From assembly GCA_965213685.1 (NCBI GenBank), contig CBDBZY010000016.1, positions 32,001 to 96,000 of the forward strand: a DNA stretch of 64,000 bases, in the 5' to 3' direction. The translations under genes and the position numbers were made by a program. Of the stretch, positions 12,632-15,600 are shown piece after piece. The stretch comes from a bacterium (GTDB lineage Bacteria; UBA8248). The first letter of the stretch is position 1, and each line of letters begins with the position of its first letter. The notes under the pieces are model-generated. The model searched no databases and was not told the origin of the DNA. It was given only the letters and a program-made list of their open reading frames with translations.

Positions 12632-15600
12632 ATGGAGAGCTACCAGCCCAAACGGAGGTACTTGCACACCTCGGCACAAGTGGGAAGTAAAGTGATAGTG
12701 TACAGCGGAGTGACGGTAGACGATACAGTAGAGAAGAGGAAGCGCTTGGCCTCCATGGTGGAGGTCTTCCATCCCCACAGCGAGCACTGGGAGGCCAAGC
12801 AATCCAATGGACAGACCCCAGCACCAGGGCTGCGCGGTGCAGCCAGCGCAGTAGTCAACGACCAGCTGTATTCGTACGGAGGGAGAGATGGTGACGGCAA
12901 CTTCCTTCATTCCTTGCACCAGCTGAGCGCCAAGACCTACGAGTGGCGCGGACTGAACGCTAAAGGTCCTGCATCACCAATGCCGAAATGGGGTGCGGCA
13001 ATGGTCGCCTGCGGGGACGGTCTAGCGCTCTTTGGAGGCTACGGCGTACCACGCGGCCCCACCCAGCGCGCCTCATCGCTCATCAAGGATACCGCGTACA
13101 CTGACGGCAGTGGGTGGACCAATGAGTTCCACATCTACCACCTCAATGAAGGTATGCATACATGTACAACAATGACTAGAATTTGCAGCTTGCCTTTGGT
13201 TGTTTGTTGTTTGGGTATACATTACCCCAGCTCTTCCCAACACTGTTGGCTTTAGGCTTTTGAGGTGCAGGTTTTCCCTAGGGTGTAGTTCTGGTGTTTG
13301 TGGTGGATGTATTCTGAAGCCACAATCACTAAGGGCTCACCTTGGGGTACTTAAACCAGTGGTGCTAGAGCAGCTTGTACAGTCATGGTGCTGATGAGAG
13401 GCAACCAGCTTGAAGCAGCTGTCTGCCATTGCCTGGCTTGCTCTGGCCCACCTGATTTGATCATGTACATACATGCACACTGTACTCACTGAACTGCACT
13501 ACAACATGTGTAACACTTTTGCATTGATGGCTCCCTGTAGCTAATGAGTGTAGTACTGCTGTTCCCATTCCTCATTCTGCTATGGCATGTTAGCACTCCC
13601 CACACTGCAGGTGTGTGGAGCTCCCCTGCCACCACTGGAGAGAGACCTCCTCCGTGTTCTGACTTCTCCCTCACCTCCATAGACCATAAAAGAGCTGTCT
13701 TCTTTGGAGGGTTCAATGGAGAGCGGGGCAAGATGAATGATGTGTACATCATTGACCTACAGAGTATGGTATGTGAGCTGATGAATTATTGATTGCTGGT
13801 ACAGCATATGATGTAGTACATGTATCTTGTACATATTGGTTACAGAGCCCAGACAGACATGTGTGAGTGTTGCATGGGCTCATACATGTGTGTCTGGGCT
13901 GTGCAAGTTATTTGTTGTCAGTTGAGGCTGGTATAGGGTTGCAGCTCTGTTTGCAGTAGTACAAGAGATATGACTAATGGGTTTGCATTGTGTAGCAAGT
14001 TCCAAAAATAGTGTCATTCCCAAGATTTGTCCCTGCAGCGTTATTTATTGCACTAGCCTTAACTCCAGCGGCCAATGTGTTATCTGGTACACTGTGTTGT
14101 GCATTGTGGATTGAGTGCATGTAGTATTGCTATGGCCAGTACAGCTGTCCTGGTAGTGAACTACAGTGTGCATACTGCAGCAGATGGTGACGTGTGATAG
14201 TGTAATGAATGGTTAGCTTTATGCAGCATATATTGGGTCAAAGGTGAAATGGGAGGCACCTGGAGTGGTGGCTAGTGTGTGTGTGTGGCAGTAGAAAGGT
14301 TGGCAGTTGGAATGGTGGTGGAGAGACAGTTTTCCTTTCCTTGTTAAAGCTTATTGATACGTGCAGGGTTTGATACACTTGACGTGCAATATGGCCTGTG
14401 GCAGTGGATGGGAAGAGAAGTTGGTCTCTGTTTGTGTAGTTATATGCTGAACTGTCTGTCACTGCAGCACTGGACCAAACTCAACAAGTCAGGAGGAGGA
14501 CCTTGGCCAGAGGAGAGGTCATGGCATGCTGCTTGCAGTCTGAACTATGGCGAGCAACACCCTCAACTGCTGGTCACTGGGGGATGGGGCAGACAGAACA
14601 GACAGGGCAAGGTACTGGGGGATGCCTGGATTCTGGATGTGGACAGTGGGAGGTGGAGGAAGGTGAGGAGGAAGTGTAGCTGTACTGCACACTCTGTGAT
14701 GGTTACTATACACATAGCATAGTCCTGTGGTAGTGCTTTGGCTGATTGAGTGCATCAGATAAAAGAGGTAGTGAAGTGCTGCAATGTAGCCTGAGACAAT
14801 GCTGTGGCATTGTATGCCTGTATGTATGTAGACAGTGTGAGTTATGTTACATGTGCATAGCACATGTACTGGGTAGTGCTGAACACACTGTCTGTGTAAC
14901 ACTACAGTTAACATCTCTCCCCTCCAGGTGAGGGACACTCTACAGCCTCACTGGGGACACTCAGCATGTGCCATACAGATTGGCCCTAATCTGACAGAGG
15001 TCATCATGTTTGGAGGGAGGAACCTCCTGAATCGTCTCCTGGATCGTCTTGGAGGCACTGTGCTGGCTGATACAACTGTACTGCAGTTCAGTGAGTGGTG
15101 TGGGGTTTGTAGAATGTGTGCTGACGAGGGAGGGGAAGAGGGAAAGTGTGGGAAAGGGGAGATTGGGAGGAGAGAGTAGGGACGGGAGGCATGAGGAGGA
15201 GTGGGAGGGAAGGGAGCAGGTCATGTGATGAGCTATTAGCACTGCCTTACATCAGTAAATAACTAGGTGAGGAGCCACCTGTTAAATCAGGCTTAGTTGC
15301 ATTGCCTTGCCTTGGATTTGTAAGCCAAGCAGCTGGGCTGCCTTGGTAGCTGAGTTGGTAGAGCACTGGCCTAGACAGCCAGTGGTTGGTGGCAGGTTTG
15401 AATCCTGTCCGGGGCAGCTCAGTGTTGTCTGCCTTGGATGTGTGCCATTTATGATTTGAGCATGGACATACATGTATGTACACATTCCAATTAGTGTGCA
15501 ATAATTGATATTTTCTTTTTTGATTGCATTCCCCTTTGTTTTGCATGCCTTTAGTCTTATCTATGGCTGCCTGTGATACACACAGTCATAATGTAATGAC

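Follow-up and report, generated by a model that had tools for sequence, protein, structure and literature searches.

Why should the short exons of tandemly duplicated genes differ more from each other than the introns lying between them? The question is raised by genes A and B, two copies of a gene predicted to encode a Kelch propeller followed by a Roc-COR GTPase and a Death domain, which are located in a stretch of 64,000 nucleotides (the window) of the 526,799-base contig C16; coordinates without a contig name refer to this window. The original prediction, made from the comparison of A with B, held that hypervariability is confined to loops on the ligand face of the propeller, and attributed it to strong diversifying selection, or to exchange within a pool of paralogues, acting on a recognition surface such as that of an immune or allorecognition receptor. 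The analysis below favours, with a probability of about 60%, an account in which interlocus gene conversion homogenises the scaffold of these genes, while diversified codons of a putative ligand pocket persist and are reshuffled among the copies.

Divergence of exons and introns among the gene copies

In the alignment of A with B, exons 2-4 contained 34 mismatches in 483 aligned bases (7.0%) and three in-frame indel events, whereas the introns contained 45 mismatches in 2338 bases (1.9%; Fisher p = 3.8e-8 for exon versus intron). The contrast first noticed between the two copies is thus confirmed and is stronger than initially stated, and all six amino-acid differences quoted for A and B were found in the translations. 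Three further paralogues with the same near-identical introns were located outside the window, E and F on contig C4 and D on C16 just upstream of the window. Exons were 2.5-4.4 fold more divergent than introns in all six pairs of the intact copies A, B, E, and F (p from 9e-4 to 5e-11), and the excess was also present in all four comparisons with copy D. Intron mismatch among the four intact copies was 1.7-2.1%, with identities of 96-99%; copy D could be compared only in intron 1 (97-98% identical) and in part of intron 2 (93-94%). Copy D (C16:10518-31908) appears to be a pseudogene: exon 3 lacks one base, exon 2 lacks three, and exon 4 is displaced by approximately 4.9 kb. Pocket motifs of its own are nevertheless retained, as is an open Roc frame with 93.6% identity to that of A.

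Near-identity of the copies begins abruptly around position 13103, inside exon 1, and ends around 16180, and the BLAST matches of all other copies stop at the same ends. In the self-comparison of the window, a tandem repeat unit of 21-22 kb was present in about three copies, mostly 82-93% identical to each other. The segments 13031-15584 in A and 35007-37533 in B, at 95.0% identity, stood out from the rest of the unit, and 15750-16179 in A and 37594-38022 in B were 98.4% identical. Over the whole of exon 1, A and B agree at only about 67% of positions. The exon falls into two deep lineages, one of A and F and the other of B, E, and D, which are 67-70% identical to one another, with a synonymous divergence (dS) of 0.8-1.2 (approximately 1.2 for A versus B) and a ratio of nonsynonymous to synonymous divergence (dN/dS) of about 0.3. 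On the other side of the tract, the Roc-COR exon of A and B gave a dS of 0.29 and a dN/dS of 0.37 (688 codons). As the dS values of exon 1 and the Roc-COR exon stand against an intron divergence of about 0.02, the tract is much younger than its surroundings and the copies are old. The near-identical introns are best read as a derived, homogenised state, probably reached via gene conversion. A search of positions 13000-16300 against Rfam returned a tRNA-like element only, and no known RNA family that would explain the conservation of the introns.

Recurrence in a second subfamily

A related gene is present on contig C18 in a tandem array of 14 copies, which lie between approximately 31 kb and 773 kb at intervals of 40-84 kb. 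Its exon 1 shares about 25% identity with that of A, its Kelch part is split into four exons as in A, and Roc-like and Death-like frames follow; some copies showed stops or frame breaks in exon 1 of the projected alignment. The alignment was a BLAST projection onto copy K11. K01, for which only 858 bases were projected, was left out, giving 13 copies, among which K04, K08, and K12 are without exon 4 and K04 is also without the end of exon 3. Nucleotide diversity among the 13 copies was 0.134, 0.064, 0.062, and 0.075 in exons 1-4, and 0.025, 0.034, 0.022, and 0.016 in introns 1-4, respectively. As the contrast recurs in this 13-copy subfamily, it is a property of the gene family and not of one pair. 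The host contigs of the metagenome bin (approximately 2 Mb; see below) contain at least 20 copies of the gene.

Position of the variable residues in the Kelch propeller

Two variable places recur in each blade in both families, namely two residues before strand A (the DA loop), located between a conserved R/C and the H/F that opens the strand, and the loop after the GG doublet (the BC loop). Codons at these places are referred to as hot codons, and the others as framework codons. Blades 4-6 of both families vary at the same two places. When exon 3 was compared among 49 sequences (A and 48 unnamed public fragments; 65 columns), the positions with the highest entropy, 19, 47, 40, and 18, were those of the DA and BC hot spots. 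Of the 27 positions of exon 1 that are variable within at least two of three groups, 22 belong to the DA and BC loops (p 7e-4 by Fisher's test). As the same blade positions vary in both families and in blades 1-3 as well, the variation tracks protein structure and not a DNA motif.

Among proteins of solved structure, KLHDC2 was the best relative of exon 1 (E 3.7e-14) and one of the three best relatives of exon 2 (E 2.7e-10), the latter aligning with residues 205-251 of 8ebn_A. The numbering of 8ebn_A was taken to be that of KLHDC2 itself, as the chain has 406 residues, presumably the length of the full-length protein. The loop after GG in exon 2 aligned with Arg236 to Arg241 of KLHDC2, the R-SW-H of exon 3 with Ser269-Trp270, and the invariant W of the GSGW motif with Trp191. 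The degron pocket of KLHDC2 is described in PMC11377542 as these residues, Trp191, Arg236, Arg241, Ser269, and Trp270. According to PMC4668279, which also describes the consensus of the Kelch repeat, Kelch domains have their substrate surface on a single face made of the DA and BC loops. The proposed placement of the variable residues on the ligand face is thereby supported, both by their recurrent DA/BC location in all blades and in two subfamilies and by the alignment with the KLHDC2 pocket, this support being one of alignment and topology and not of a model of the protein in question. The BC loops also change in length, in frame, by short tandem duplication: the 24 extra bases of A in the BC loop of exon 4 include a tandem duplication of a 12-base unit (15024-15047), and exon 1 of F carries a 15-residue repeat (GGYGVPHGPTQR..).

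Tests of selection at the variable codons

The hot sets were defined from the motifs of the window's family (A, B, D, E, and F) and were then measured in both families by Nei-Gojobori counting with bootstrap over codons. In the window's family, framework codons gave a dS of 0.052 and a nonsynonymous divergence (dN) of 0.024 (dN/dS 0.46), and hot codons a dS of 0.287 and a dN of 0.374 (dN/dS 1.30, bootstrap P 0.19). The corresponding values in the C18 family were a dS of 0.046 and a dN of 0.024 for framework codons (dN/dS 0.51), and a dS of 0.182 and a dN of 0.292 for hot codons (dN/dS 1.60, bootstrap P 0.034). Relative to framework codons, replacement sites of hot codons therefore changed 12-15 times faster and silent sites 3-6 times faster. 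Minimum changes counted among the 13 C18 copies gave 72 nonsynonymous changes on 93 hot sites versus 33 on 346 framework sites (p 2e-37), and 17 synonymous changes on 27 hot sites versus 24 on 113 framework sites (p 7.5e-5). When only the two-residue DA sites were considered, dN/dS was 2.27 in the window's family (bootstrap P 0.046) and 2.07 in the C18 family (bootstrap P 0.039). Over the whole of exons 2-4, dN/dS was 0.5-1.4 and never significant, and gene-wide selection tests are therefore uninformative. The strong diversifying selection initially proposed is thus supported only in part: the DA codons give a dN/dS of 2.07-2.27 (P about 0.04), but over all hot codons the signal is marginal, and dS is raised there as well.

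Exchange between copies and alternative origins of the diversity

The combination of pocket motifs is unique in each of the 13 C18 copies. Motif sharing among them is non-nested (K09, for example, has the DA4 motif of K05 and the DA3 motif of K13), and 442 of 946 pairs of informative sites failed the four-gamete test, with a minimum number of recombination events (Rm) of 25 in 4.4 kb. In the window's family, F and D have a common framework patch in exon 2 despite their different exon 1 lineages. Exchange within a paralogue pool, the second option of the original prediction, fits this mosaic sharing of motifs. Hot-site distance (0.11-0.34) was larger than intron distance (0.016-0.044) in all 78 pairs of C18 copies, and intron, exon 1, and hot-site distances were uncorrelated (Mantel r -0.06 and 0.11; for intron versus hot-site distance, r -0.06, p 0.60).

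These distances bear on an alternative in which one 3 kb segment spread recently through the copies and its pocket codons then diverged by very fast adaptive point substitution, no old variants being retained. Adaptive divergence of such rapidity is known from venom and conotoxin genes. The elevated dN/dS of the DA codons is in line with it, as are the many hot codons that differ at two or three bases and carry at least four residues, and the 21 of 119 hot nucleotide sites at which more than two bases occur. Amino-acid selection alone, however, does not predict the 3 to 6 fold excess of synonymous change at hot codons over framework codons, and the hot-codon dS in the window's family is the same as the dS of the unconverted Roc-COR exon (0.29 versus 0.29). 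Hot-site distances unrelated to intron distances, together with the mosaic sharing of motifs, also argue against this sequence of events, which is considered unlikely.

Mutation targeted to the hot codons without selection, through error-prone repair, hypermutation, or slippage, is very unlikely. It would account for the joint rise of synonymous and nonsynonymous changes at hot codons and for BC-loop indels generated by short tandem duplication (exon 4 of A and exon 1 of F), but the hot places track the periodicity of the propeller in six blades and two subfamilies with no common DNA motif around them, the indels are all in frame in intact copies, and purifying selection acts on framework codons at a distance of only a few bases (dN/dS approximately 0.5). 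The base differences at hot sites (AG 29, AT 17, GT 22, AC 14, CG 16, and CT 19) carry no deaminase-like or adenine-specific signature, and the ratio of transitions to transversions was 0.70 at hot sites and 1.49 in introns. Programmed hypermutation of the diversity-generating retroelement or deaminase type was rejected as a candidate on the same absence of a base-specific signature, no search having been made for a template repeat or reverse transcriptase. Taken together, these observations suggest that selection rather than mutation maintains the diversity.

Independent sequence data

Logan contigs of three other public runs, from three studies, were aligned to copy A. The introns appeared in these runs as single long pieces with 0-4 differences (13745-14303, for example, at depths of 81, 250, and 840), and intron 2 was a single contig of 534-559 bases in runs X1 and X2. 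The hot codons were crossed by 5 to 19 different contigs in the three runs (8, 14, and 14 at 13658, and 5, 19, and 8 at 13725). In each run, intron 2 was covered roughly five- to six-fold more deeply than the A-type piece of exon 1 (81.4 versus 14.2, 250 versus 54.9, and 840-959 versus 181), which fits five or six copies having one intron sequence, although contig depths are not copy numbers and the contigs of public runs drop rare variants. With single intron pieces and many exon variants in three other runs, the intron identity is not an artefact of this assembly. The exact 39-base string at the start of exon 3 was absent from the genome and metagenome contig collections excluding the window's own genome.

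The least probable origin of the contrast, namely that the introns were equalised by assembly collapse or over-polishing or that the loops are unconstrained and misaligned, gains some room from the mixed metagenome bin of the contigs, the indels of the BC loops, and the loss of rare variants in public-run contigs, but is close to being dismissed by the agreement of the three runs, by hot sites 5-10 times as divergent as introns in 78 of 78 pairs when neutral loops cannot exceed intron divergence, by DA sites that are free of indels (except DA3 in the second family) between perfectly conserved flanks, and by the reading frames and GT-AG sites that are intact in A, B, E, and F.

Proposed mechanism

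In the account favoured here, interlocus gene conversion would keep a 3 kb segment near-identical among at least five paralogues. The converted segment would begin at the end of exon 1, take in introns 1-4, and include the framework codons of blades 4-6. Two codon sets per blade, the pair before strand A and the loop after GG, would escape homogenisation, and these are predicted to line the pocket that binds the ligand in KLHDC2 and Keap1. Diversifying selection at the level of the family would favour copies with different pockets, and conversion would also carry pocket motifs between copies, giving rise to new combinations. Silent sites in or near the selected codons would stay divergent because their linkage is too tight for separate homogenisation.

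Several points weigh against conversion combined with selection. The excess of dN/dS over 1 is weak when all hot codons are taken (1.30, P 0.19; 1.60, P 0.034), and the ratio from minimum changes at hot codons is 1.24 (binomial P 0.25). The methods are crude, with Nei-Gojobori counts and a bootstrap over 40-42 codons, and site models would be biased by recombination. The hot sets were chosen after A and B had been seen, so that the independent tests are the second family and the 48 public fragments, and as the BC loops carry indels, some of their divergence may be misalignment. As to location, position 62 of exon 3, the fifth most variable column (entropy 2.36), belongs to a CD loop and hence to the opposite face, and the enrichment in exon 1 is modest, since 89 of the 173 residues of this exon are DA or BC loop residues and the strands were taken from a model with a mean confidence of 59.5 (predicted local distance difference test, pLDDT). 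The evidence for the exon borders consists of open frames, intron phase, GT-AG sites, and the agreement of the two subfamilies. Instead of extra loci, contig C4 may represent a divergent haplotype, and ongoing conversion is deduced from one genome.

Architecture of the encoded protein

The gene is predicted to encode a six-blade Kelch propeller and a Roc-COR GTPase, with a weak Death-domain match at the C-terminus. Exon 1 matched Pfam PF24681 with 69.9 bits (cut-off 50), and Kelch models matched exon 2 (E 2.4e-9), exon 3 (E 2e-6), and, at only E 0.0055, exon 4. The spliced translation contains six GG (or SG) doublets with Y/W strands after them, in line with Kelch blades, each of which has a hydrophobic strand, a GG doublet, and conserved aromatic residues. 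The low-confidence model of exon 1 alone (pLDDT 59.5) has the expected four-strand blades. In copy A, the Pfam Roc match stayed under its cut-off of 27 bits (20.2 bits), and COR gave no Pfam match at E <= 0.1; several homologues carry precomputed PF08477. The AlphaFold model of the Roc-COR exon (653 residues; pLDDT 75.7, predicted template modelling score 0.78) generated 32 structural matches at E <= 0.001, and the best 30 listed were all Roc-COR or COR structures, including those of C. tepidum Roco, LRRK1/2, and M. barkeri Roco2. The top matches, 6hlu_A (E 9e-9) and 3dpu_A (E 1.7e-8), extended over approximately 503 columns, and the COR-only chain 3dpt_B matched the model with a template modelling score of 0.63. 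At the level of the modelled fold, the Roc GTPase thus appears to be directly followed by COR. The last frame of A gave a weak match to PF00531 (E 0.0015), its 19.1 bits falling short of the cut-off (22.6).

Among 8000 scored candidates, 204 relatives of the Roc-COR exon were found at E <= 0.001, and the best 120 were all unnamed metagenome proteins. Among 882 candidates, the only longer proteins related to exon 1 were two fungal Kelch proteins. No description of a sponge Kelch-Roc-COR-Death family was found in the literature, though supplementary domain tables may list it. Orthology to KLHDC2 was considered and rejected, as the aligned pocket positions vary between copies and Roc-COR follows the Kelch propeller; a cullin-binding box was not searched for.

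Gene layout and origin of the window

C16 and several other contigs of the bin have a G+C content of 44-54%, and many contigs of the same bin are at about 65% and bacterial-looking; the bin is thus mixed. Among the public runs that contain this stretch, five are labelled sponge metagenome. We read the window as sponge host DNA within a symbiont (bacterial) bin because the exons, GT-AG introns, and domain content fit an animal gene, and also because of the G+C split of the bin and the labels of the runs.

The features of the window are listed in Table 1. Exons 2-4 of A and B are flanked by AG and GT throughout, and B has the exon structure of A with all splice sites retained; in E and F, as in these two copies, no reading frame or GT-AG site is broken. 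The borders are supported by the distant C18 subfamily, which has introns at the same places and phases. The third repeat unit keeps the 5' part of the unit, and another gene seems to be present in this 5' part, co-duplicated with the Kelch gene. In the rest of the window, six of the eight open reading frames tested had no match in Pfam. The long short-period repeat arrays are common to the repeat units and occur on both strands, and GT/CA and GGGA-type microsatellites flank the exons. Within intron 1, a sharp spike of depth was present in all three public runs, with many loose ends at 13429, and part of the intron matched contig C41 at 82%; a short dispersed repeat is probably located there. 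The tRNA-Ser(AGA)-like element in intron 4, which lies inside the homogenised tract, was called by ARAGORN and by Rfam (tRNA, 46.9 bits), and may be either a tRNA gene or a repeat that derives from one.

Table 1. Features of the window, with positions in the numbering of the 64,000-nucleotide stretch.
Feature	Position	Strand	Remarks
Gene A exon 1	12632-13151	+	ATG at 12632; donor G/GTATGC, phase 1; Kelch blades 1-3 and start of blade 4
Homogenised tract	13103-16180		Covers the end of exon 1, introns 1-3, and the greater part of intron 4
Gene A intron 1	13152-13610	+	96-98% identical in all 10 pairs of five copies
Depth spike in intron 1	13383-13469		Probable short dispersed repeat
Gene A exon 2	13611-13768	+	One Kelch blade
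Hot spot DA2	13658-13663	+	SD
Hot spot BC2	13712-13735	+	FNGERGKM
Gene A intron 2	13769-14467	+	98-99% identical among A, B, E, and F
Gene A exon 3	14468-14662	+	One Kelch blade
Hot spot DA3	14519-14524	+	SW
Hot spot BC3	14585-14617	+	WGRQNRQGKVL; 9 extra bases in A
Gene A intron 3	14663-14927	+	98-99% identical among A, B, E, and F
Gene A exon 4	14928-15090	+	One Kelch blade; ends in phase 1
Hot spot DA4	14952-14957	+	WG
Hot spot BC4	15018-15065	+	
Gene A intron 4 (inferred)	15091-16662	+	Holds the tRNA-Ser(AGA)-like element and a CT microsatellite
tRNA-Ser(AGA)-like element	15339-15418	+	In intron 4
Gene A exon 5, Roc GTPase and COR	16663-18732	+	Open frame with GSGKTT P-loop and DTGGQ motif; acceptor at 16663 inferred from frame, polypyrimidine tract, and matching site in B; end at 18732 inferred from GTGAGG donor
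Gene A Death-domain open frame	19300-19644	+	Weak match to Pfam PF00531; span of the open frame that contains the predicted exon
Gene B exon 1	34587-35130	+	
Gene B exon 2	35589-35746	+	Exons 2-4 with introns span 35589-37039
Gene B exon 3	36446-36631	+	
Gene B exon 4	36901-37039	+	
Gene B Roc-COR exon and Death-domain open frame, together	38928-41951	+	Acceptor of the Roc-COR exon inferred at 38928
Gene B Death-domain open frame	41121-41951	+	
Two open frames	45740-46621 and 49705-50571	-	Match ankyrin repeats and Mind bomb SH3 repeat domain (Pfam)
Third repeat unit	52800-64000		Without Kelch exons by tblastn
Open frame in third repeat unit	60733-62451		572 residues
Degenerate short-period repeat arrays	1270-1920, 20750-20917, 22888-23185, 24717-24916, 45699-45848		

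Possible function and significance

Judged from their architecture alone, the proteins may be cytosolic recognition receptors that signal via Roc-COR and the Death domain. It is put forward as a tentative proposal, somewhat doubtful as a whole, that the genes represent a large undescribed sponge family of cytosolic Kelch-Roc-COR-Death receptors, in which a KLHDC2-like pocket that reads peptide ends is diversified in each copy, in the manner of an antigen-binding site, with the scaffold kept uniform and the motifs shuffled by gene conversion. The role in immunity or allorecognition that the original prediction envisaged is conjectural. If the proposal is true, the family would be a ROCO-based counterpart of NLR receptors, telling symbionts, pathogens, or foreign tissue from self, and a repertoire of such receptors would make the Kelch propeller, mounted on a Roc-COR switch, the equivalent of the leucine-rich repeats of NLR proteins. 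Only a small number of recognition receptors have been described in sponges, although these animals house dense communities of microbes and reject tissue that is foreign to them; the locus provides a candidate family. The hypervariable residue set is sharply defined and is placed by alignment on a pocket that, in the human protein, binds the C-termini of peptides. The locus is also an unusually clean natural case of divergence islands a few codons wide that would persist under interlocus gene conversion, and its replication in two subfamilies recommends it as a test case for models in which concerted evolution acts together with selection.

Comparison with known systems

The kind of evolution described here is already known; the gene family, and a KLHDC2-like pocket as the variable surface of a Roc-COR-Death protein, appear to be new. 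Exons more divergent than introns are familiar from venom families (conotoxins and snake phospholipase A2), which are secreted toxins with dN clearly above dS. In the sponge family, unlike these, divergence is elevated at the silent sites of hot codons as well, and the contrast would be due mainly to intron conversion.

A closer parallel is found in the primate red/green opsins, the major histocompatibility complex (MHC), and plant resistance (R) gene clusters, where gene conversion together with selection gives such a pattern: the introns of paralogues are homogenised and divergence peaks at selected exon sites, and conversion makes new haplotype combinations while pseudogene copies persist (PMC3924837). 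The counterparts in the sponge family are introns approximately 2% different, a hot-codon dN of 0.29-0.37, mosaic histories, and the pseudogene-like copy D with its own motifs. The sponge family differs from those clusters in its fold and in the animal that carries it, in that its diversity lies among the paralogues of one genome and not among the alleles of a population, and in that its dN/dS above 1 is marginal. KLHDC2 itself, a ubiquitin-ligase adaptor, exists in one copy and has a fixed pocket, whereas in the sponge genes the pocket residues vary by copy and the Kelch propeller is fused to Roc-COR and a putative Death domain.

With the ROCO proteins (DAPK1, MASL1/MFHAS1, LRRK1/2, and bacterial Roco), the family has in common the Roc-COR tandem. 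The repeat domain before Roc is as in LRRK and MASL1, and the putative Death domain after COR is as in DAPK1; Kelch motifs are known in Roco proteins of Dictyostelium (PMC6320773). Unlike ROCO proteins, the sponge genes encode no kinase, leucine-rich repeat, or ankyrin domain, form a large tandemly arrayed family, and have a Pfam Roc match below the cut-off. Large lineage-specific expansions of Death-like and TRADD-N proteins with beta-propeller or ankyrin sensors are described in sponges, amphioxus, and bivalves; these carry TRADD-N and WD40, and a Kelch-Roc-COR-Death family is not mentioned in the available part of the article describing them (PMC8195603). The likeness is that both occur in sessile marine animals and combine a death-fold domain (putative in the present family) with variable repeat domains, and the propellers of amphioxus are described as highly variable and diversified through recombination (PMC8195603).

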